From Candidatus Borrarchaeum weybense (GTDB lineage: Archaea > Asgardarchaeota > Sifarchaeia > Borrarchaeales > Borrarchaeaceae): a stretch of DNA of 64,000 nt. The notes beneath the pieces are model-generated. The model was not told the origin of the DNA, did not search any database, and saw only the letters and a program-made list of their open reading frames with translations. Positions 21,582-62,090 of this stretch are shown here, one piece after another (position 1 is the stretch's first letter; each line of letters opens with the position of its first letter). A program made the translations under genes and the position numbers. The stretch spans positions 32,001 to 96,000 of the forward strand of contig JAHQJS010000003.1 in the NCBI GenBank assembly GCA_019057385.1, given 5' to 3'.

Positions 21582-21815
21582 GTCAACTACCCCACCCTAA
21601 AGGGTAGAGGCTTGTGAAAATCAAGCCTCTTAGTTGATTAGAGGGCTTCCGTTTATTAGGGGAAGCAGCAGTTGTTTAGGTTATGACACCCTGGGGTGTT
21701 CCACTAGCCCCTTGCTCTGTCGTCCGCTGATTATAAGTCCTGAGGGGTAGGGACGGTGTCACGGGCATGAAAGCCTTTACAACAGCCTCGAAGTGGACCA
21801 ACCTACTTTAAAGCA
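21582..21815 (+). ncRNA. IscB omegaRNA (HEARO-like) scaffold; guide expected just upstream (~21560-21581)
   Basis: GC-rich structured leader starting GTCAACTACCCCACCCTAAAGGG directly upstream of iscB; TATA-like TTTATAAAA at 21530; 3' end approximate. Confidence 0.75.
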
Positions 21816-21836
21816 ATTTAAAGGAGACGATAGGTC

Positions 21837-23039
21837 TTGAGAGTACCTATCTACGTGTTAAACATGAGAGGGCAACCGCTTATGCCAACCACTCAAAAAA
21901 AAGGAAAAAAATTATTAAGAGAGGGTAAGGCAAAGGTTGTAAAACGATGTCCTTTTACTATTCAATTAACCTATGCAACTGGAGAGGCAAGACAGCCTAT
22001 TAAACTAGGAGTGGACATAGGATATACGAACATTGGCTTTAGTGCAACAACAAAAAGGTTAGAGGTTATAAGCGGAACTTTAACACTTCGCAAAGACATT
22101 TCCAAAAAGATAGATGAACGACGAAGGTATCGTAGAACTCGTAGAGGCAGATTGTGGTATAGAAAACCGCGTTTTTTTAATAGGAAAAAGGACGAAGGAT
22201 GGATAGCCCATAGTACTCATCACAGGTTAGCTTCTCATCTTAGCCTAGTTAAAAAACTTAAGTCTTTACTGCCGATAACCTTCAAAAGAATCGAGGTCAG
22301 CAATTTAGATACACAAAAAATGCAGAATCCTGAAATTACAGGAATGGAATATCAACAGGGCGAACTTCAGGGCTACGAAGTTAAAGAATACCTTTTAGAG
22401 AAATGGGGGCGTACATGTGCCTATTGTGGCAGATCAGGCGTTCCCTTAGAAGTAGAGCATATTATCCCTTCTAGTAGAGGTGGAACAGATCGCGTGTCGA
22501 ATTTGACGATCTCATGTAGAGCCTGCAATGTAAAGAAGGGAGATCAGACTGCCGAGGAGTTTGGATACCCTGTCATCCAGCAACAGGCAAAGCAGCCTCT
22601 TAAAGCAGCTGCATGTCTGAACAACATTCGTTGGAGGATAGTGGAGCAGTTAGGAGCAGAACATACTTACGGATACATTACCAAATACCAGCGTAACAAG
22701 TTAGATCTGGAAAAGTCTCATGTTAATGACGCGTTCGTAATCTCAAGCGGCACCAATCAAGAACGATGTCGTCCTTATCAAGTAATTCAAGTTAAGAGGA
22801 GAAACCGTTCCTTACAATTGAACCGTAAAGGCTTCAAACCGTCAATTAGGAGACAACGATACCATTTACAACCCCACGATCTAGTAAAATTTGATGGTAG
22901 CACTTATAAAGTAAAGGGAGTCCATTGTTATGGAACACGGGTTATATTAAAAAATGTGAAGGGACAAGACAAGAGTGTAGTGATCACCAAAGTGGAATTA
23001 GTTAAATACGGAAAAGGATTATTATTCAACTTATGTTAG
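21837..23039 (+). CDS. iscB: IscB RNA-guided endonuclease
   Basis: PLMP, RuvC-I LGVDIG, Arg-rich bridge helix, HNH CAYCG...EHIIPSSRGG...NLTISCRACN, RuvC-III SHVNDA. Confidence 0.93.
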   Translation: MRVPIYVLNMRGQPLMPTTQKKGKKLLREGKAKVVKRCPFTIQLTYATGEARQPIKLGVDIGYTNIGFSATTKRLEVISGTLTLRKDISKKIDERRRYRRTRRGRLWYRKPRFFNRKKDEGWIAHSTHHRLASHLSLVKKLKSLLPITFKRIEVSNLDTQKMQNPEITGMEYQQGELQGYEVKEYLLEKWGRTCAYCGRSGVPLEVEHIIPSSRGGTDRVSNLTISCRACNVKKGDQTAEEFGYPVIQQQAKQPLKAAACLNNIRWRIVEQLGAEHTYGYITKYQRNKLDLEKSHVNDAFVISSGTNQERCRPYQVIQVKRRNRSLQLNRKGFKPSIRRQRYHLQPHDLVKFDGSTYKVKGVHCYGTRVILKNVKGQDKSVVITKVELVKYGKGLLFNLC

Positions 23040-27546: not shown

Positions 27547-28800
27547 TTACCCCTCAGGCGGTTTTTTCTTCTCGTGCATTCTCTTTCCCTTGCCTTTCTT
27601 TTTCTTCTTCTTTTTCTTTTTCTTTTTTGCTTTTACTTCTTTTCTTACAGGTGGAGAGGGATATTTTTTCTCAATCTCTTCAATACGCTTCATAATTTCG
27701 ATAACTAATTCGTCTCCAATAAACTCGCCTGCGTAAGCATCTACTCTTGCTGCTATCGTTAGCTTTCCAGCTATCGCTCTTGCTATTTTACCTCGCAACC
27801 ACCACTTAGCATTGTGAATCTCAGGTTTCTGAAATAATACACCATGTTTCGGAGGTTTACTCCCAGTTTTAATGGCTCTAAATAGTGCTTTCTCCGCACC
27901 TAGGACTTGAACTGTGCTAGCGGGAAGACGTGCTAGTTCAAGAAGACCTCCTGCAATGCTAATAATTCGAGCCCCTAGTAGTGCGCCGACTATTGCAGTC
28001 ACATTTGGCGCAACTTCACGCATTGTAGTTTCAATATAGTGCTCACTTTCTTTCCTGACTTTGTATAAGTCATCTGTAATTCGTGCAAACTTAACAAGCG
28101 ATTCTAGATCTGCTTCATCCATTTCTGCTCCAATTGAGTTTTTAACATAACCCTCTATCTCTTTTGCCTTGTCTAAAGGTACGCCTGTTATTCTTTGAAT
28201 TTCCGAAACTAAAAAGCGATCGCGTGGACCCAATGCTCCTACTAATCCAACATATATTTCGTGATTTTCGACTTTATCCAATTCTGGAAAATGAAGACCA
28301 TACCATTCTCGGATTCGAGTTGAGAATAAATTTAACGTTTGATCGATATCATCTATAGCTTTAATCGCTTGTGCAACCATTTTATCTCTTCGTTCAGAGG
28401 CACGCTTTATCTTCTTTTGTGATTGCAGCAAACCTACTGATTGTAATATAAACTGGAAGTTATTGATCCCTTCTTCTTTTGCTATACTGAAGGACTGTTC
28501 ACGAAAATTTTTGAATATTGAATTTCCTTTTTCAGTTAACGTTTGAATATCAAATTGCTCCTGAATATTCCTTGCTAGTTTTTCGTCTTCAAGGACGATT
28601 TCTTGAACCTCTTTTTGCTTTAGTACACCTAGAACATCTTTTAATTCGTCAATAAGTTGTCCTGATTGAAGAAGTTCAATTTTTTCTACAATTTTCTCTG
28701 GCGTACTTGGAAAAAGCGCACGATAAATAATTTCGCTATTCTCATCGACCCCATAGATTCCTGCAACATTCTCCACAATATATGCACGTATTGATGTCAT
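27547..28800 (-). CDS. nop5: Nop5/Nop56 box C/D RNP protein
   Basis: EWYGLHFPEL, STVQVLGAEKALF, PKHG, GKIAR, Lys-rich tail. Confidence 0.95.
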   Translation of the reverse strand: MTSIRAYIVENVAGIYGVDENSEIIYRALFPSTPEKIVEKIELLQSGQLIDELKDVLGVLKQKEVQEIVLEDEKLARNIQEQFDIQTLTEKGNSIFKNFREQSFSIAKEEGINNFQFILQSVGLLQSQKKIKRASERRDKMVAQAIKAIDDIDQTLNLFSTRIREWYGLHFPELDKVENHEIYVGLVGALGPRDRFLVSEIQRITGVPLDKAKEIEGYVKNSIGAEMDEADLESLVKFARITDDLYKVRKESEHYIETTMREVAPNVTAIVGALLGARIISIAGGLLELARLPASTVQVLGAEKALFRAIKTGSKPPKHGVLFQKPEIHNAKWWLRGKIARAIAGKLTIAARVDAYAGEFIGDELVIEIMKRIEEIEKKYPSPPVRKEVKAKKKKKKKKKKKGKGKRMHEKKKPPEG

Positions 28801-29089
28801 TCAGATCCCATCTTCTATTATTAAGTTTTTAAGAACTTAATAGAATATCACGTATCTTTTGTATCTACTGGATTTTATTTCTCACGAGAAAATAAGGGTT
28901 TTTTCACCATTTTAATGTTTTTCCAAAAACTTATTTATCCTTTTAGAAAGCAATACTTGTTTATAATTCGAGAGAATAAATTATCTTATTCTAAATTATA
29001 TTTCACAATAGTGGGAGCGTAAAATATTTCTAGAAATTTGATTTCAAGAAATGTGTAGATACTCAAATGCGTTAAGAAGGAACTAATAA

Positions 29090-30445
29090 ATGATAGTCAC
29101 AGATTTGGTAAATTTAGCAAAAAAATCGGTCAAAATATTTAACGAACATGTTATTAAGGAAAACCTAGAACCACCAATGAGAGCCTATATTAGAGAATTT
29201 CCTACTAAATTTGAATTAACCGAATCAGGACACAGTTGTGGATTTTCAGGAGAAATAGTTCATAAACCGGACTGGTCTATGATAATATTTAATTTCATAG
29301 ACAAAATCAAAAAAAAGCCAGCCTTCGCACAACTTGCTCAATCAATTGCAGCAAGATATAAAAAGAACATCCAAGATCTGGCCGAAGGGTGCAATGAGTT
29401 AGCACAAGTCACTTTTTGGTTGGAGCGATTTATTCAGAAGATAATTTATAATAATTTAGATAAAGAACTTTCAGAAAATCAAATTATAGAATATGCTGTA
29501 TTGTTTAATTCTGATCTTGAATTAAATCCTTCAGAATATAATTACACTTTCTATTTAAACGGTATTTTCTTAGAATGTGAATCGGTAAAGATTAATGATA
29601 ACGTAATCATTAGAAAACCGCAAAAAGAGGATTTTGAATATACTAGAGATATTTTCTTCGATATTCCAAGACATCATCATATTAGAATTCCTTCATCAAT
29701 ACTGGAAATGAATATGATCGCTAAAGATAACAAAGAATGTAGAGCCTACGCCAATAGAATACTTAACGCATTAAGGCTATATAAACTGGGTTCAATTTAC
29801 CCTATTAATCAGATTGAAACTAGAAAGTCTATCATTTGGGGAGGTTCTCAAATAAGTTGGAATGGAAATTATACTTCCATCAAAAATTATACTGTAAATG
29901 AAACTGAACTTAAAGATTTTATTGATATTGTTATTGAAATTGAACAGAAATTGAATTTTAACAAAAAAGAAAAGAAAAATTGGGGGCTCCTTATTTCTCT
30001 TGAAAGATACAACTCTGCTCTTCTAGAATCTTTAGATATTGATCGAAAAGTAATGACTACAATTATGGGATTAGAATCTTTATTTTCTCTTGAAAAGGAT
30101 AGGGGCGAAAATGCGTATAAATTGGGCGTTAGAGTTGCGAAGTTACTCGGATTTATGAGACCGGATATTGAAGAAGTAAGAACATTGATAGAAAGTGGGT
30201 ATAAATTCAGAAATGATGTTGTTCACGGTATGTATATTAAACAAAACCAAAGAGAGAAAATGGAAAAAAACCTCCTGAAACTTCTCGACTATCTAAGAAT
30301 GTCTTTAATATTTTTTCTGATAAATCAACAACAAGGAAAAAATAAGTTAGTTGACATAATCGATAAATCACTAATAAGCGACAATTATGGCGAACAACTG
30401 AAAAGATTATTTCAAAACGGTATTATTATCTGTCCAAACATGTAG
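29090..30445 (+). CDS. ApeA/HEPN-like protein (putative RNase, defence cargo)
   Basis: C-terminal GLESLF...YKFRNDVVHG (RxxxxH); AT-rich island. Confidence 0.65.
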   Translation: MIVTDLVNLAKKSVKIFNEHVIKENLEPPMRAYIREFPTKFELTESGHSCGFSGEIVHKPDWSMIIFNFIDKIKKKPAFAQLAQSIAARYKKNIQDLAEGCNELAQVTFWLERFIQKIIYNNLDKELSENQIIEYAVLFNSDLELNPSEYNYTFYLNGIFLECESVKINDNVIIRKPQKEDFEYTRDIFFDIPRHHHIRIPSSILEMNMIAKDNKECRAYANRILNALRLYKLGSIYPINQIETRKSIIWGGSQISWNGNYTSIKNYTVNETELKDFIDIVIEIEQKLNFNKKEKKNWGLLISLERYNSALLESLDIDRKVMTTIMGLESLFSLEKDRGENAYKLGVRVAKLLGFMRPDIEEVRTLIESGYKFRNDVVHGMYIKQNQREKMEKNLLKLLDYLRMSLIFFLINQQQGKNKLVDIIDKSLISDNYGEQLKRLFQNGIIICPNM

Positions 30446-30550
30446 AAATCTCTAATAGATGAGTTTGAGTTATCTTAAATTTCAAACGACTCAGTTGAGC
30501 AAAAATAGATAATAATTAGTATAGATGTTTAAAATAAGTTAGTGGTATGA

Positions 30551-31612
30551 ATGGTATCTAAGATTAATCACTTTACCGATGCAGGAGAACTGTTTAGAAG
30601 ATTGGATACAATAGAAAGATTCCCAAATGTGCCTATTAAAACGGTATTGTTCATCTATGATTTCAGGTACAAATTATTAGACATCTTAGATAGAATAACA
30701 CCCCAGGAATATCAAAAATCGTCTTATAAAATTAAATTTGAAAACGATGATGTTGTCTTGTTAGATGTGAAGATCGTAAAAGATTTAGATATAATTTCAA
30801 GTGATAGGAGAAAAGTATTTCTTATAATAGATAAGAATAAGCCATTTTGTATTTTGATTACAAATTCTGAGGGAAATTATTTCAAAAAAGTATTATCATT
30901 TTTCAATAAACATTATCCGCTATTATCAAGAATTTTTTTACGCTCAAATGAAATAAAAGACTTATTAAACTATCTAGAGGAAAAAGAAGAAGCGAAGTTG
31001 ACCGTTTTAAGTTATGTTGTTAAAAGATACTATGTAAGGCCAGAGACAAGAATTGCCTATGAGAAAATCAGTTTTAGAGAAGTCTTTGATAAGGCATCAG
31101 ATGATTTTCTTTGGGTAGATAGTATTTATTTAGCAATTGAAAAAAGATCCAAGAGTAAAATTAGGATAAATAGACGAGGAGTCATATCATATTATAGGAA
31201 TTTAGATTATTCAAATATTCATTTGATTCTTATCTCTCAAATTCTTATTAAATACTCAAAAATATATACAAGTATCCTAATGGAAAGATCGAGAAGTCTT
31301 GAAAATTTAGAACCCCGACCAGTAAGGTTTTTTATAAACGAAGACGTCTTCAATTCATCAGAAGATATCGATAGGTTCTTAGAAGCTTTGCATAAATATT
31401 TGCTTAATTGGGGATATTCAACATTATTTAAAGAAAGAAACTACCTTTATCTCATACTTCACGATTATCAAACAGGTTCAAGTTACGATATTTTGATCAG
31501 TTCTCCTTATGAAATATTTGTTACTCCACAAACTCAAGTTACGAGCATTTCTTTTGGCGCTCTAGTCAACTTTCTTGTTGATAATTATGATGGAGTTGTT
31601 GAAAATGTCTAA
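30551..31612 (+). CDS. Hypothetical protein, coupled to the next gene
   Basis: 353-aa ORF in island. Confidence 0.7.
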   Translation: MVSKINHFTDAGELFRRLDTIERFPNVPIKTVLFIYDFRYKLLDILDRITPQEYQKSSYKIKFENDDVVLLDVKIVKDLDIISSDRRKVFLIIDKNKPFCILITNSEGNYFKKVLSFFNKHYPLLSRIFLRSNEIKDLLNYLEEKEEAKLTVLSYVVKRYYVRPETRIAYEKISFREVFDKASDDFLWVDSIYLAIEKRSKSKIRINRRGVISYYRNLDYSNIHLILISQILIKYSKIYTSILMERSRSLENLEPRPVRFFINEDVFNSSEDIDRFLEALHKYLLNWGYSTLFKERNYLYLILHDYQTGSSYDILISSPYEIFVTPQTQVTSISFGALVNFLVDNYDGVVENV

Positions 31613-32705
31613 AGATAATAATGAAGAATTAATGAGATTTAGAAAAATAGATATCAGCAACTATATCAAAGCGCTAAAATCTCTGATATGTTTAAGGAAA
31701 ATGATTATAAACGAGTTATCAGGTGAATTCTATTTTGGTAGTAAGTTAAATTACAAAAATAAACAAGGAGATCCTCAAACACCTGACTTTATTACAAAAC
31801 TAAGCAATACTGCATGGATAGGAGAGCTTAAAAGATCGCTTCCTGAACCTAAAAATTTTACTTCTGAAGAAGAATATGTCGAGAAAATTGTAGAAAAACT
31901 TATCGAACAGTTGCAAAAATATGATGAATCTTTTAAGGAATTAGATTCTTATCAGCATGATATTATACTAATGACTCCATCATTAGCAACAGATGCAATA
32001 GGCGTTTTGAAGTTTAAGTATCTAGAAAAAGAGAATGTCAATAATCTGTTTAAACACAATTTTGCACTTCTTCTTTATACACTTGAATCAGGAGCAAATA
32101 ATACCGAGTTCATATACATTAAATTGGATTATGGAACTATTACTGATAAGAAGGCTACAGATATTTTAAAAGTTGGTTACAAAAAGGTTTTAGGAGAATT
32201 AAAAGAAGATTTAGCGAAATTTAAAATATATGAAGAAAGTAAACAAACACCTTTTGAATATGTAATGGTTCTGCTTTGGACACAGATATTCCCTGAGATA
32301 ATCAAAAAAAGTCGTGTAGAGAAGATAATCGAATGGAAAGACAGGAAGGAACACATATTCGAAGTAAAATTAGATGAGTTAATTGAATATCTACATAAAA
32401 TGTATACATTGCCATCTTTGAGTGCAACTGACAAAAAGCAATTTACAACCAAGATAATACAGAAAGCCATGACTATGTTTTCAAAGGTTAAAATTAAAAG
32501 TGAAAGAACTAGAAAACTCGAACCTTTGGTTACGTATGGTGAAAAAGACGGTTCTATGGTATTTAGAGTGGTTTATAAAAAACTTCGGGAGAAGAAAGAA
32601 TTGGACTTCATTCTTAAGTCGATTTATTTGGAACAAGGTGAAATTGAAGACAAGGAAACTCAAAGAGAATTAATTAATTATCCACGATTAGATACATGGT
32701 TTTAA
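31605..32705 (+). CDS. Putative PD-(D/E)xK nuclease-domain protein
   Basis: TPDF...WIGELKRS...QLQKYD; start taken at ATG 31605. Confidence 0.55.
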   Translation: MSKDNNEELMRFRKIDISNYIKALKSLICLRKMIINELSGEFYFGSKLNYKNKQGDPQTPDFITKLSNTAWIGELKRSLPEPKNFTSEEEYVEKIVEKLIEQLQKYDESFKELDSYQHDIILMTPSLATDAIGVLKFKYLEKENVNNLFKHNFALLLYTLESGANNTEFIYIKLDYGTITDKKATDILKVGYKKVLGELKEDLAKFKIYEESKQTPFEYVMVLLWTQIFPEIIKKSRVEKIIEWKDRKEHIFEVKLDELIEYLHKMYTLPSLSATDKKQFTTKIIQKAMTMFSKVKIKSERTRKLEPLVTYGEKDGSMVFRVVYKKLREKKELDFILKSIYLEQGEIEDKETQRELINYPRLDTWF

Positions 32706-32936
32706 AATTTTAAATAAAAAGTAGTTATAAATTGATTCGCTGTTCTGTTAGTTATAGCGAGAGAGTTCTTTTTCCATAATTTTCTATACTAAAAACCGCT
32801 TAGAACAATTTTTTCAAAGAAAGGAAGTCAACTATACACCCATTTTATTAGAGGAGATGGGAAAACCTAATTTTTTTGATGGGTTTATAAATCTAGTTAT
32901 AGAATGTATAAATGAGATTATATCGAGGTTGGAAAT

Positions 32937-33758
32937 ATGAGAAAAACAAAAAAACTGATGATGATTCATGCCTATACTCCCATTGCAAAACCGATCAACA
33001 CCTCTGTTCAAAAAAATTCAACCATGCTGTTGTTAGGTCAAATTCCCTACGAAAACGGGTCAAAAATATTCACTACTAAGCTTTATTATATCAAAGGATT
33101 ACGTGGAATGCTAAGACATGCCTGTATGAGCCTTGCTCAGGATTGTAGTATCGAGGTGTGTCATACCAGCGAAAAAACTGAACTCAAAGACGGTACAAAG
33201 GTGACTCCCTCAGGGTTTCATCCACTGGGTGAATGTGAACCTCCATGCATCCTCAAAAGAATTTTTGGTACATTTCGCGAGGAGTCCTCAATATCTGTCT
33301 TGTCAGATCCTATAGCTTCTATTAAGCACAAAGAATTTACCACTGAAGTTCCTGTGCAAAAGGTACATATCGCTAGCGAATATAGAATAGCGAAATCGTT
33401 CACGGGTATACCTATTCAGGACTTCAAGGAATCGTATTTCTCAGGGTATTTTAGTTTCTGTATTGATGTAACTGAATTAACTGACTATGAAATCAAGTTT
33501 CTCATGGAATCTCTACTCTACATTGAAACACTTGGTGCTGGTAAGCGTTCGGGTTATGGACGTATCAAAATTATTAGTTTCGAGTTTCAGAAGGTTGAAA
33601 TTACCAGAAAGATCGACCGCGAAAATGGAAGTTATAAAGTTGTTGAGAATGAGTCGATAACGCCCTTAGAACTCGATGATATCGAGAGTTGGAGGGATTC
33701 AATACCTTCATGGACACAAGGCACGCAAGATGGTATGCTACCTGTTCTTAACGAGTAG
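32937..33758 (+). CDS. cas7: Divergent Cas7-like RAMP (locus A)
   Basis: IKGLRGMLRH, Cys cluster CH...CEPPC, IFG, G-rich loop LGAGKRSGYGRI; close paralog of 61174..61983. Confidence 0.8.
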   Translation: MRKTKKLMMIHAYTPIAKPINTSVQKNSTMLLLGQIPYENGSKIFTTKLYYIKGLRGMLRHACMSLAQDCSIEVCHTSEKTELKDGTKVTPSGFHPLGECEPPCILKRIFGTFREESSISVLSDPIASIKHKEFTTEVPVQKVHIASEYRIAKSFTGIPIQDFKESYFSGYFSFCIDVTELTDYEIKFLMESLLYIETLGAGKRSGYGRIKIISFEFQKVEITRKIDRENGSYKVVENESITPLELDDIESWRDSIPSWTQGTQDGMLPVLNE

Positions 33759-33932
33759 CACGTTCTTGTGCATGAGACTGCTCATCTATAAAGGTCTGAC
33801 GCCTTTGATGAGGAGGGATGACTCGCAGGGGACGATAAATGTCGTAAACATGTTTATGAGTTTACTAAGTCTATCGACTAACCTTGCAAAGCCTCTCTTA
33901 AGCGATGGCAAGTTAAACGCTTGTCATCGCTT
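33731..33932 (+). ncRNA. Putative guide RNA 1: scaffold 33731-33843, guide ~33844-33889, hairpin 33900-33932
   Basis: Scaffold shared with 59913-60028 and 61025-61139; 33865-33889 matches pyrD 34041-34065 (24/25). Confidence 0.7.
33900..33932 (+). terminator. Hairpin after guide 1
   Basis: AAGCGATGGCAAG/CTTGTCATCGCTT stem (one G-U), followed by T-rich tract. Confidence 0.55.
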
Positions 33933-34037
33933 CCATTTTATCCTATTGTTTCTTCTATACTTCTTCAGAAAAAGTTAAGAAGTCTAATATAAAAGTAAGA
34001 GTTAAGATAAACGAATGAAAGTGAAGTTTAGATTTTT

Positions 34038-34982
34038 ATGCTAACTCTATCGACTAACCTTGCAACATTACAACTTAAGAATCCTGTTATGTTAGCTGCT
34101 GGAGTTCTCGGTATTTCGGGACCAGTACTTAAACGGGTAGCGAATGCCGGTGCGGGTGCGGTTGTCACAAAATCTATCGGTCCTGAGCCCAGAGAAGGTT
34201 ACAATAATCCAACAGTCGTTCCTTTAAATGAATTTAGTTGTTTGAATGCTGTTGGGCTTTCAAACCCTGGGTATTTAGAGTTTTCCAAAGAAATAATTTT
34301 GGCAAAACAAGAAAACGTTCCAATAATTGTTAGTATATTTGGCGCAGATATTGATGAATTTTGTACAATTGCGAAGAAAATGGAAAAGAGTGGTGCTGAT
34401 GCACTTGAACTTAACCTTTCATGTCCTCATGGAGGAAAATATGGTGCATCTATCGGACAGGATCCACAATTATCAGGTGAAATTGTATACGCCGTAAAAA
34501 ATACCGTGCAGATCCCTGTTTTTATTAAACTCACACCAAACGTGACTGATCTGATTCCTATTGCAAAAAGTGCTGAAAATAATGGTGCCGATGCTATTAC
34601 TGCAATCAACACAGTACGCGCTATGTGCATAGACATTGAAACTGGGCAGCCCTTATTATCAAACGCGTTTGGAGGGCTTTCTGGGCCTGCAATAAAACCA
34701 ATCGCAATCAAACATATTTATGATCTCTATAAAGAAGTAGGGATCCCTCTTATCGGTGTGGGTGGTATTGTTTCTTGGGAAGATGCAATAGAATTCTTTC
34801 TTGCTGGAGCTACTGCAATTCAAGTAGGGACTGGGCTTCTGCGGACATCATTCCTAGACATGTTTAATGAATTAACCGAAGGAATTCTAAGTTATCTCAG
34901 AAGAAAAGGCTATACTCGTTTAGAAGAAATCATTGGACTTACTCATAGACTTAAATCTTATAGGGGATCTTTACACGAGTAA
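34038..34982 (+). CDS. pyrD: Dihydroorotate dehydrogenase B catalytic subunit
   Basis: KNPVMLAAG, LNAVGLSNPG, ELNLSCPH, KLTPN, GGLSGPAIKP. Confidence 0.95.
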   Translation: MLTLSTNLATLQLKNPVMLAAGVLGISGPVLKRVANAGAGAVVTKSIGPEPREGYNNPTVVPLNEFSCLNAVGLSNPGYLEFSKEIILAKQENVPIIVSIFGADIDEFCTIAKKMEKSGADALELNLSCPHGGKYGASIGQDPQLSGEIVYAVKNTVQIPVFIKLTPNVTDLIPIAKSAENNGADAITAINTVRAMCIDIETGQPLLSNAFGGLSGPAIKPIAIKHIYDLYKEVGIPLIGVGGIVSWEDAIEFFLAGATAIQVGTGLLRTSFLDMFNELTEGILSYLRRKGYTRLEEIIGLTHRLKSYRGSLHE

Positions 34983-59304: not shown

Positions 59305-59595
59305 TTAATCACCCTCTTGTAACTTTTGTTTGATCACAAAAACTCGTATTTTTTCCTCTGCAATTATAAGTGTATCATTGATGGATTTAATTACAGAATG
59401 AGGAATTAAAATTGTTCCTTTCTCATCGCGCGGAAATTTTTCAATATCTGGATGTTTAGTAGGCTTCACACACACCGCTAATAGGTGGCCATCTCGCGAA
59501 TTAATTATGAAATCAACTACCTTTCCCATAGCAGAACCTTTTTCATCAGTTACAGAAATACCAACTAAGTCCCGGATATCGATGATTTCCGACAT
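59305..59595 (-). CDS. PRC-barrel domain protein
   Basis: DLVGISVTDEKGSAMGKVVDF...ILIPHSVIKSINDTLII. Confidence 0.85.
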   Translation of the reverse strand: MSEIIDIRDLVGISVTDEKGSAMGKVVDFIINSRDGHLLAVCVKPTKHPDIEKFPRDEKGTILIPHSVIKSINDTLIIAEEKIRVFVIKQKLQEGD

Positions 59596-59846: not shown

Positions 59847-60028
59847 AGGAGGGAATAATCCCTCCTTATCTAATATTTACAGGAATGCCGATTAAGTCGC
59901 GGATATTTTTTTGACATTTTTCGTCCCCTGCGAGTCATTCATTCCCAACAAGTGAGGCGTCGGACCTCTAATTTGGTTCAGTCTCATGCACAAGAACGTG
60001 TCCCCCGTGATATACGAAGAACATTCCG
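59847..60028 (-). ncRNA. Putative guide RNA 3: scaffold 60028-59913, guide ~59912-59875, hairpin 59866-59847
   Basis: Scaffold copy; 59906-59877 matches PRC-barrel gene 59579-59550 (25/30); perfect AGGAGGGA/TCCCTCCT stem. Confidence 0.7.
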
Positions 60029-60944: not shown

Positions 60945-61139
60945 CTCCTCTTTGAACAAAAGAGAGGAGATATAAACCTTGCCAAAGTAAACACGTTTGC
61001 AACTGTTGTTTGTAAAGTGGGTATGACATTTTTCGTTCCTTGCGAGTCATCCGTCCCCAACAATTGAGGCGTCGGACCTCTAAGCTGGTTCAGTCTCATG
61101 CACAAGAACGTATCACTCACATCAGTAAGTGATAAACCG
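60945..61139 (-). ncRNA. Putative guide RNA 2: scaffold 61139-61025, guide ~61024-60970, hairpin 60969-60945
   Basis: Scaffold copy; 61021-60970 aligns to cas7 promoter 62071-62019 (7 mismatches, 1 gap). Confidence 0.72.
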
Positions 61140-62017: not shown

Positions 62018-62090
62018 TATATAAACCTTGCTCAAAATAAACACTTTTTCTACTCTTGTTAGTAAAATGGGGTTTAAAATGACTTCCTTT
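62018..62090 (-). promoter_or_regulatory. cas7 promoter (TATA TTTATATA 62025-62018); homologous to 32821-32890; matched by guide 2
   Basis: AAGGAAGTCA...CCCATTTTA...GGTTTATA...GAGGTTGGAAA-n-ATG upstream of both cas7 copies. Confidence 0.65.

Follow-up and report, generated by a model that had tools for sequence, protein, structure and literature searches.

ARAMP (Asgard RAMP) systems were reportedly described by Makarova et al. in CRISPR J in 2020. Since that year they have stood as array-less derivatives of CRISPR in which Cas1 is unexplained and the RNA is unknown. The system considered here lies in 64,000 nucleotides of the genome of Candidatus Borrarchaeum weybense (contig JAHQJS010000003.1, positions 32,001 to 96,000 of the forward strand; this whole stretch is referred to as the window), where an island that is absent from sister species ends in the gene for an ~88-nt RNA scaffold beside pyrD, which encodes dihydroorotate dehydrogenase. 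The segment that follows the scaffold, in the position that a guide would occupy, probably belongs to the former 5' end of pyrD, judging from its alignment with the sister species. The pyrD locus and its paralogs supply a candidate for the ARAMP RNA, and would be the first sign that array-less ARAMP systems carry guide-like RNAs tied to insertion sites.

The available text of two accounts characterizes ARAMP as a type III derivative without arrays that has its own distinct Cas1 and works by an enigmatic mechanism (PMC8730458, PMC12669027). The protein set encoded here is an ARAMP system; an Asgard host, a Cas7-like RAMP, a second gene of RAMP size with a putative HD motif, a Cas1 domain, and the lack of an adjacent CRISPR array are common to both. 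The portions of the known descriptions that were available name no RNA, and no RNA component of ARAMP was found in the literature searched, a body of text that did not extend to the primary ARAMP description; here, in contrast, candidate scaffold RNA genes are present at every locus. Two further differences are that the variable tails of these scaffolds match the system's own promoter or the insertion site, and that the loci mark the ends of insertions that empty sites in the sister species allow to be dated.

In IscB and TnpB elements, the guides are flanking DNA. The OMEGA systems of these elements (omega-RNA, IS200/IS605) resemble the present loci in having a structured RNA scaffold at the very end of the insertion and flanking host DNA in the place of the guide; here the scaffold likewise ends at the element edge with host DNA next, as seen at position 1262997 of contig C4, at pyrD (33851/33852), and where gene starts follow at 8 nt. 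OMEGA systems use a RuvC nuclease and TnpA, whereas a multi-subunit RAMP effector and a helicase-Cas1 protein are found here; neither a RuvC nor a TnpA gene was found in the island. The scaffold RNA is also unrelated to omega-RNA, the sole Rfam match in the window being the HEARO RNA of a separate IscB. In a further departure from OMEGA, some of the putative guides here are internal and terminated, and one class appears to target the system's own promoter. The homing spacers of CRISPR-associated transposons (CASTs; types I-F3, I-B, and V-K) offer another parallel, an element-borne guide that matches a conserved host gene beside the element end. Matches to a host site beside the element end were found here at pyrD, at PRC-barrel, FtsY-type, and purA genes, and at the junction of an element on contig C5. 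The matched sequence abuts or overlaps the junction (-13 to ~+130 nt), whereas the CAST target lies ~50-65 bp away, and the candidate integrase is Cas1; neither the island nor the full loci were found to contain Tn7-like genes or a CRISPR repeat-spacer unit.

Casposons are likewise integrative elements in archaeal genomes, and the Cas1/casposase fold is the best structural match (6opm) to the ARAMP integrase candidate. They differ in their terminal inverted repeats and 14-15-bp target duplication, which were not found here; PolB was not recognized in the element proteins, and in the present loci Cas1 forms one protein with a Hel308-like helicase and is accompanied by RAMP genes and RNAs. CRISPR-derived autoregulatory RNAs, exemplified by the long-form Cas9 tracrRNA, are guide-like RNAs partially complementary to the promoter of their own cas operon (bioRxiv 10.1101/2023.03.03.530964); the likeness is limited to internal tails and does not include the pyrD tail, and the scaffold here is no CRISPR repeat. 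Vipr, an ancestral RAMP according to the available part of its description (bioRxiv 10.64898/2026.04.26.720920), was set aside as a match, as the alternating GGY/NN repeat mentioned in that part was not seen in the tails that were read.

The repeated pyrD start and its ancestral form

The 25 nt at 33865-33889 recur at 34041-34065 with 24 of 25 positions identical, the sole difference being G at 33869 and C at 34045. When the 70 nt following the scaffold were searched against the whole genome (4.18 Mb) by blastn-short, the pyrD copy was the only strong match (E 2.6e-5); ungapped local alignment of a 60-nt segment with its own 1.5 kb downstream scored 22.5, compared to a mean of 8.9 and a maximum of 11.5 for 60 shuffles. 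The repeat is confirmed to be real and far above chance, in agreement with a preliminary description of this DNA made from the sequence alone. The right copy constitutes codons 2-9 of the present pyrD (34038-34982, forward strand; Pfam DHO_dh 1.8e-74), whose same-genus orthologs are 81-91% identical, and the pyrD-like reading given earlier for the left copy (MSLLSLSTNLAK) is correct. As that description also stated, the left copy occupies the variable part of a scaffolded RNA gene adjoining a Cas7-like gene, and a hairpin stands between the copies; it lies at 33900-33932 and is terminator-like, with 14 pairs followed by a T-run.

All of these features are on the forward strand. The Cas7-like RAMP gene of this satellite ARAMP locus (32937-33758) is intact and encodes 273 aa; its stop codon is overlapped by the scaffold (copy 1, 33757-33843), which was delimited by aligning the three copies in the window. 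An 8-nt handle, GTAAACAT, follows at 33844-33851, and then the variable segment (33852-33889), of which the left repeat copy forms the last part. About 21 nt after the scaffold had been described as unmatched. This holds for the 8 nt GTAAACAT, which are also found after the closest scaffold relative, in sister genome G004 (contig C95, loci L054/L072), the two sequences diverging directly after them; it does not hold for the next 13 nt, GTTTATGAGTTTA, which match pyrD in the ancestral form kept by the sister species.

The ancestral form is known from a comparison of the present genome (G000) with sister genomes (G001, G002, G003, and G004), which are few and mutually related. In three of them, all of the same genus (G004, G001, and G003), nop5 and pyrD stand back to back about 150 nt apart, with pyrD beginning ATGAGT; this is the empty nop5-pyrD interval that the preliminary description had thought worth seeking in related genomes, and a JGI metagenome contig carries the same empty site. 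The nop5-pyrD regions of the three genomes were compared by blastn with the window and the genome. The 5' part of G004 nop5 aligns up to 28789 (107/113), 38 nt of the G004 pyrD start (query positions 231-268) align to 33852-33889 (36/38), and G004 pyrD onward aligns from 34041 (93/95), where ancestral homology resumes and continues. The island takes the place of 117 nt of the ancestral nop5 start and intergenic promoter region, which are gone from the G000 genome. The variable segment accordingly matches another form of the pyrD start, as had been proposed, namely that of the sister species: it reads as a 4-nt leader, ATG, and 11 codons, and holds 13 ancestral bases (the leader, ATG, and three codons) that the present G000 pyrD lacks.

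The preliminary description went on to suggest that the segment had been captured from an ortholog, which three observations speak against. The 4 nt of ancestral leader are contiguous with the ATG and three codons. The guide and gene copies in G000 have one lineage-specific base in common that G004 lacks, and the single difference between the copies is derived in the guide copy; the two are therefore sisters within the lineage, and not the product of an imported allele. A contig from the metagenome of an unrelated marine sediment, ~95% identical in pyrD, joins 33864 directly to 34041, such that the scaffold is followed at once by an intact ancestral-type pyrD (a single contig of 369 nt, the left 44 letters of which are unread). 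The segment accordingly looks like the original pyrD start of this lineage, which stayed where it was next to the scaffold, while the start used today would be a rebuilt one. A pattern scan of JGI metagenomes for the ancestral joined pyrD start returned one contig only, with the G004-type empty site, and no scaffold-to-pyrD junction. A local duplication independent of the scaffold had been named as a finding that would speak against a guide. A local duplication of 176 bp does exist, but it is not independent of the scaffold, because the ancestral sequence begins exactly where the conserved scaffold sequence ends.

The 151 nt between the repeat copies (33890-34040) have no counterpart in the sister species or elsewhere in G000 by blastn. 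They consist of 10 nt, the hairpin with its T-run, an AT-rich part, a TATA-like box at ~33986-33996, and the new pyrD ATG (34038-34040). For the 105-108 nt upstream of this ATG, homology to the ancestral intergenic region was not significant in local and semi-global alignments judged against shuffles and composition-matched windows; a MAFFT alignment that hinted at such homology was discounted on these grounds.

Scaffold genes, tails, and proteins of the ARAMP loci

The scaffold has 26 nhmmer matches in G000 and at least 25 further copies in the four sister genomes; 43 distinct copies from the five genomes align with a conserved outer stem and apical hairpin, and no Rfam family matches them. 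ARAMP loci carry one to four scaffold copies each, with variable tails. In Ca. Borrarchaeum yapensis (JAEOSF010000044.1; L076, 4665-6345), a 1.7-kb stretch holds four scaffold units, of which three are only 230-270 nt apart, as a small tandem series of scaffold-tail genes. In an ARAMP variant at C4:903456-903956 of G000 (L048, L059), the scaffold and 8 nt are followed by a 96-aa open reading frame (ORF) with a GIY-YIG-like motif recognized by eye, which is conserved in G003 and G004.

A full locus has the order large protein (1327-1363 aa), cas7, scaffold with tail, 270-aa gene with an HD-like motif, and second scaffold with tail. The Cas7-like protein is recognized by Pfam (RAMPs, 1.3e-6), PADLOC (Csm3, 1.8e-7), and, weakly, NCBIfam (type III RAMP); that of the satellite locus is 64-73% identical to nine paralogs in the genome, and the closest relatives are in Ca. 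Borrarchaeum yapensis and in Promethearchaeota and Heimdallarchaeota metagenome-assembled genomes (MAGs). These Asgard MAGs and the presence of archaeal nop5 and fibrillarin identify the host as an Asgard archaeon. The N-terminal part of the large protein is a Hel308-like helicase. For the last 328 aa of the 1327-aa protein a Cas1/casposase fold is predicted (pLDDT 72.7), and the top 50 Foldseek matches in the PDB all belong to the Cas1 family (best 6opm_B, E 9e-7, TM ~0.6). The fold search alone was successful, searches by sequence with Pfam, PDB phmmer/hmmsearch, and ESM Atlas having returned nothing for this domain; the predicted structure confirms at the level of fold that the helicase is fused to Cas1 in full loci. 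The only CRISPR array detected in G000 by a k-mer scan (C4:148434-152129, at least 49 repeats) is far from all ARAMP loci.

Tails that follow cas7 are internal to the loci. At seven loci, the one in the window and six more on contigs C4 and C5, such tails match 41-53 nt directly upstream of the locus's own cas7, through the TATA box. The tails covary with the cas7 promoters over three diverged clades, with scores of 30-41 within a clade and 8-19 against other clades. The TATA box is mutated in the tail copies, which argues that they are not simply duplicated promoters. The internal tail of the full locus in the window (60970-61024, reverse strand) matches its own cas7 promoter at 62019-62071 in 45 of 53 positions and is a candidate autoregulatory guide.

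For terminal tails the match is with the 5' region of the host gene alongside, in every case on the same strand. That of the full locus in the window (59875-59906, reverse strand) matches the 5' end of the adjacent PRC-barrel gene (Pfam PRC; target 59548-59579) in 25 of 30 positions, with a score of 17.5 against a null maximum of 12.5, and is closer still to the orthologs in G004 (31/32) and G002 (30/32). The terminal tail beside an FtsY-type GTPase gene matches it at 28 of 34 positions, five of the six differences being synonymous; the corresponding figures are 27/30 for a purA leader in G003 and 22/23 for locus L050 of G004. The order guide, hairpin, new promoter, gene seen at pyrD recurs at the PRC-barrel and FtsY-type loci. 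A search for a scaffold relic before the PRC-barrel ATG gave a 15-nt match only (E 0.12). The PRC target differs from G004 at 6 of 32 positions and the rest of the gene at 11 of 241 (Fisher p 0.008, a post hoc comparison at one locus), and the contrast does not reach significance for G002 (p 0.14); the pattern hints, weakly, that the target is escaping self-matching.

Insertions with empty sites in the sister genomes show how the elements end. The C5 element (G000 C5:117988-128548) is a complete ARAMP insertion of 10,561 nt with three scaffold units and a precise empty site in G004 (L039, 3487/3499); one internal scaffold-guide unit matches, at 27 of 31 positions, host DNA that begins 5 nt past the right junction, 1.7 kb from the tail itself. 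At C4:1262997 a 1222-nt insertion ends in the scaffold and 8 nt (AAAAAATG), with the empty site in G001. In sister genomes G001 and G004 (L045, L053, L061, and L068), start codons lie exactly 8 nt after the scaffold, and the genes so placed encode S19e and phosphoglucomutase-type, acyl-CoA dehydrogenase, and aconitase-family proteins. ARAMP insertions are shown to end in the ~88-nt scaffold and ~8 nt, and this end falls on the start codon of a housekeeping gene or a few nt ahead of it; the first ~12 codons of that gene therefore become the variable 3' part of the RNA. The 49 distinct tails gave 14 high-scoring matches on the same strand and one, borderline, on the opposite strand. Two apparent guide-target matches were discounted, at L061 (where a complete acyl-CoA dehydrogenase gene has a tandem paralog after it) and at L069 (a duplicate of the 3' part of a small ORF). 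Three regularities run through the family: the scaffold is at the end of the insertion, tails match the system's own promoter or the start of the gene at the insertion site, and the matches are on the same strand as the tail.

Origin and possible function of the pyrD tail

At pyrD the right end of the island, consisting of scaffold and 8 nt, is proposed to have landed 4 nt before the ATG, so that the pyrD start became the variable part of the RNA. A later change of 176 bp, made up of 151 nt of new DNA and the 25-nt duplication, would have separated the RNA gene from pyrD, supplying the RNA with a terminator hairpin and pyrD with a new promoter and ATG. The 176-bp separation is shown as a structure; the order of events is a reconstruction. 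Comparative evidence suggests that the scaffold and tail may be a functional guide RNA, predicted to be bound by Cas7 and Cas5-HD proteins from this and other loci and to base-pair, at a pyrD start, with the template strand of the DNA. Because the tail has mRNA sense, it can pair only with that strand and never with pyrD mRNA, and the covariation of internal tails with promoters argues that tails may in general recognize DNA. The full 38-nt match exists only in the unoccupied or ancestral allele, the present pyrD keeping just the scaffold-distal 25 nt; a target-site guide therefore fits better than a dedicated pyrD repressor. That the genes flanking other loci differ widely in function points the same way. 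Such a guide could serve in homing, or in policing, by telling occupied from empty sites. That the pyrD tail is a flank-derived target-site guide in both origin and function is put forward tentatively, with slightly less than even confidence in the two parts together; the origin alone is probable and the better supported of the two.

Several observations weigh against this proposal. The metagenome contig in which scaffold and pyrD are joined could reflect a deletion between the repeats of a G000-like form, instead of the state before an insertion in G000. Cas5-HD and helicase-Cas1 are both missing from the satellite locus at pyrD, so any activity must come in trans. The HD-type motif of the putative Cas5-HD (LLHDFV..RH, NHHNY) was seen by eye only; profile searches gave no match, and Foldseek was empty with a poor AlphaFold model (pLDDT 59). 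Covariation in the scaffold fold is modest, with double-sided change in 1 of 14 predicted pairs. Neither terminal inverted nor direct repeats were found above shuffled controls at the ends of the C5 element and the island. The PRC-barrel and FtsY-type guides differ from their targets mostly at synonymous positions, which seems to fit import from another lineage better than origin in place and suggests that guides may have been acquired elsewhere in the family. The 3' end of the scaffold reads AAAGGTG in many copies, with an ATG 8 nt later, and resembles a ribosome-binding site; the main role of the scaffold could be that of a mobile leader.

This last point is central to an account in which the tail at pyrD is an inert fossil: the scaffold would be a mobile 5' leader or expression cassette, and the old pyrD start a by-product of insertion and duplication without guide function here. 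The Shine-Dalgarno-like scaffold end 8 nt before the start codons of essential genes and the incomplete gene set of the satellite locus agree with such an account, and the events at pyrD are too recent for the conservation of the 38 nt to be informative. It is nevertheless rather unlikely, given that other scaffold tails covary with cas7 promoters in three clades and are followed by terminators and not by genes, that the internal tail of the C5 element matches its own junction 1.7 kb away, and that the cas7 gene at the pyrD locus is intact. More doubtful is a CAST-like history in which an earlier capture from a pyrD allele supplied the 38 nt as a homing guide internal to an element (28790-34040), which then integrated at the matching site under RNA guidance and cut into its own target. 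The recurrent layout at the PRC-barrel and FtsY-type loci, the PRC guide that is closer to the G004 and G002 alleles than to its own host, the synonymous differences of the FtsY guide, and the Cas1 integrase domain of full loci would all be expected of such elements; at pyrD itself, however, the two copies are sister sequences within the lineage, in the left one the ancestral leader runs directly into the ATG, a joined form that lacks the 151 nt is known, and these 151 nt are unique and not a shared element end.

Two further explanations assign the repeat to regulation or to site-specific recombination. A ribonucleoprotein that binds the present pyrD start in the manner of CRISPR interference and tunes pyrimidine synthesis would exploit the 24/25 complementarity to the template strand at codons 2-9, and the family clearly has promoter-matching tails for its own cas7 genes; this is the role for which the preliminary description had proposed tests of binding and repression. 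The match covers only the scaffold-distal 25 of 38 nt and is explained by the history of the pyrD start, the sense of the RNA precludes action on mRNA, and the flanking genes elsewhere (S19e, FtsY, purA, and PRC-barrel) are functionally unrelated, contrary to a gene-specific regulatory logic; this role is improbable. An attachment-site (att) duplication, left when a tyrosine or serine integrase inserted an element at the 5' end of pyrD, has in its favor that direct repeats at a gene 5' end and a replacement promoter and start codon resemble those of integrative elements. The geometry excludes it as a candidate, leaving it a very slight chance: the repeats flank the 151 nt and do not bracket the island, no third copy was found in the genome, and Pfam and profile searches recognized no recombinase in the island. 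The preliminary description had likewise judged the repeat not to be of att type, and this judgement stands.

A broader proposal, to which a low probability is attached, is that ARAMP loci are RNA-guided, Cas1-driven mobile elements. A Cas7/Cas5-HD complex would form an R-loop at the 5' end of a gene, and helicase-Cas1 would insert DNA at the R-loop edge, placing the scaffold beside the protospacer. The 25-nt duplication around the 151 nt would then have arisen by staggered integration of the Cas1 type into the R-loop of the element itself, a mechanism akin to the duplication of repeats in CRISPR adaptation. An RNA-guided Cas1 element, if true, would be the third independent union of guide RNA and integrase, after CRISPR-associated transposons and OMEGA, and would stand between casposons and CRISPR as a living intermediate. 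Should the RNA prove functional, the loci would form a new class of compact modules that recognize DNA under RNA guidance and are linked to an integrase, and they would bear directly on the coupling of CRISPR adaptation with guide use. Even on the dullest reading, essential genes of Asgard genomes (pyrD, nop5, S19e, and ftsY) have had their promoters and start codons rewired by this family.

The island, nop5, and a separate IscB element

The island occupies 28790-33851 (5.06 kb, forward strand), as defined by blastn and the empty loci, and comprises three AT-rich cargo ORFs, the cas7-like gene, and the scaffold. Both nop5 and fibrillarin, identified by Pfam, lie upstream of pyrD on the opposite strand. 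The nop5 gene (27547-28800, reverse strand) has the Pfam Nop and Nop5 N-terminal domains, and its homology with relatives stops at 28789. The left end of the island has rewritten its first codons (28790-28800), so that the protein begins MTSIRAYIV and not MKRAYIV as in the three sister species, and has replaced its promoter as well (28801-29089). Since the starts of both nop5 and pyrD are rewritten, the island must carry outward-reading expression signals for two essential operons, one at each end.

The cargo ORFs (29090-32705) have a G+C content of ~0.28, compared to ~0.40-0.45 across the cas7 gene and the host flanks. No Pfam family was found for any of the three; the third has a weak PADLOC match to HEC-02B (5.7e-5). 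A 21-nt inverted repeat (20/21; blastn E 2.7e-4 within the window) links 28678-28698 in the nop5 coding region with 31881-31901 in the third ORF and may be due to chance in AT-rich DNA.

The HEARO (omega) RNA lies at 21582-21802 (Rfam, 116.8 bits) and is followed by a gene for a 400-aa IscB with RRXRR and HNH domains; together they span 21582-23039 and are a separate RNA-guided element within the window.

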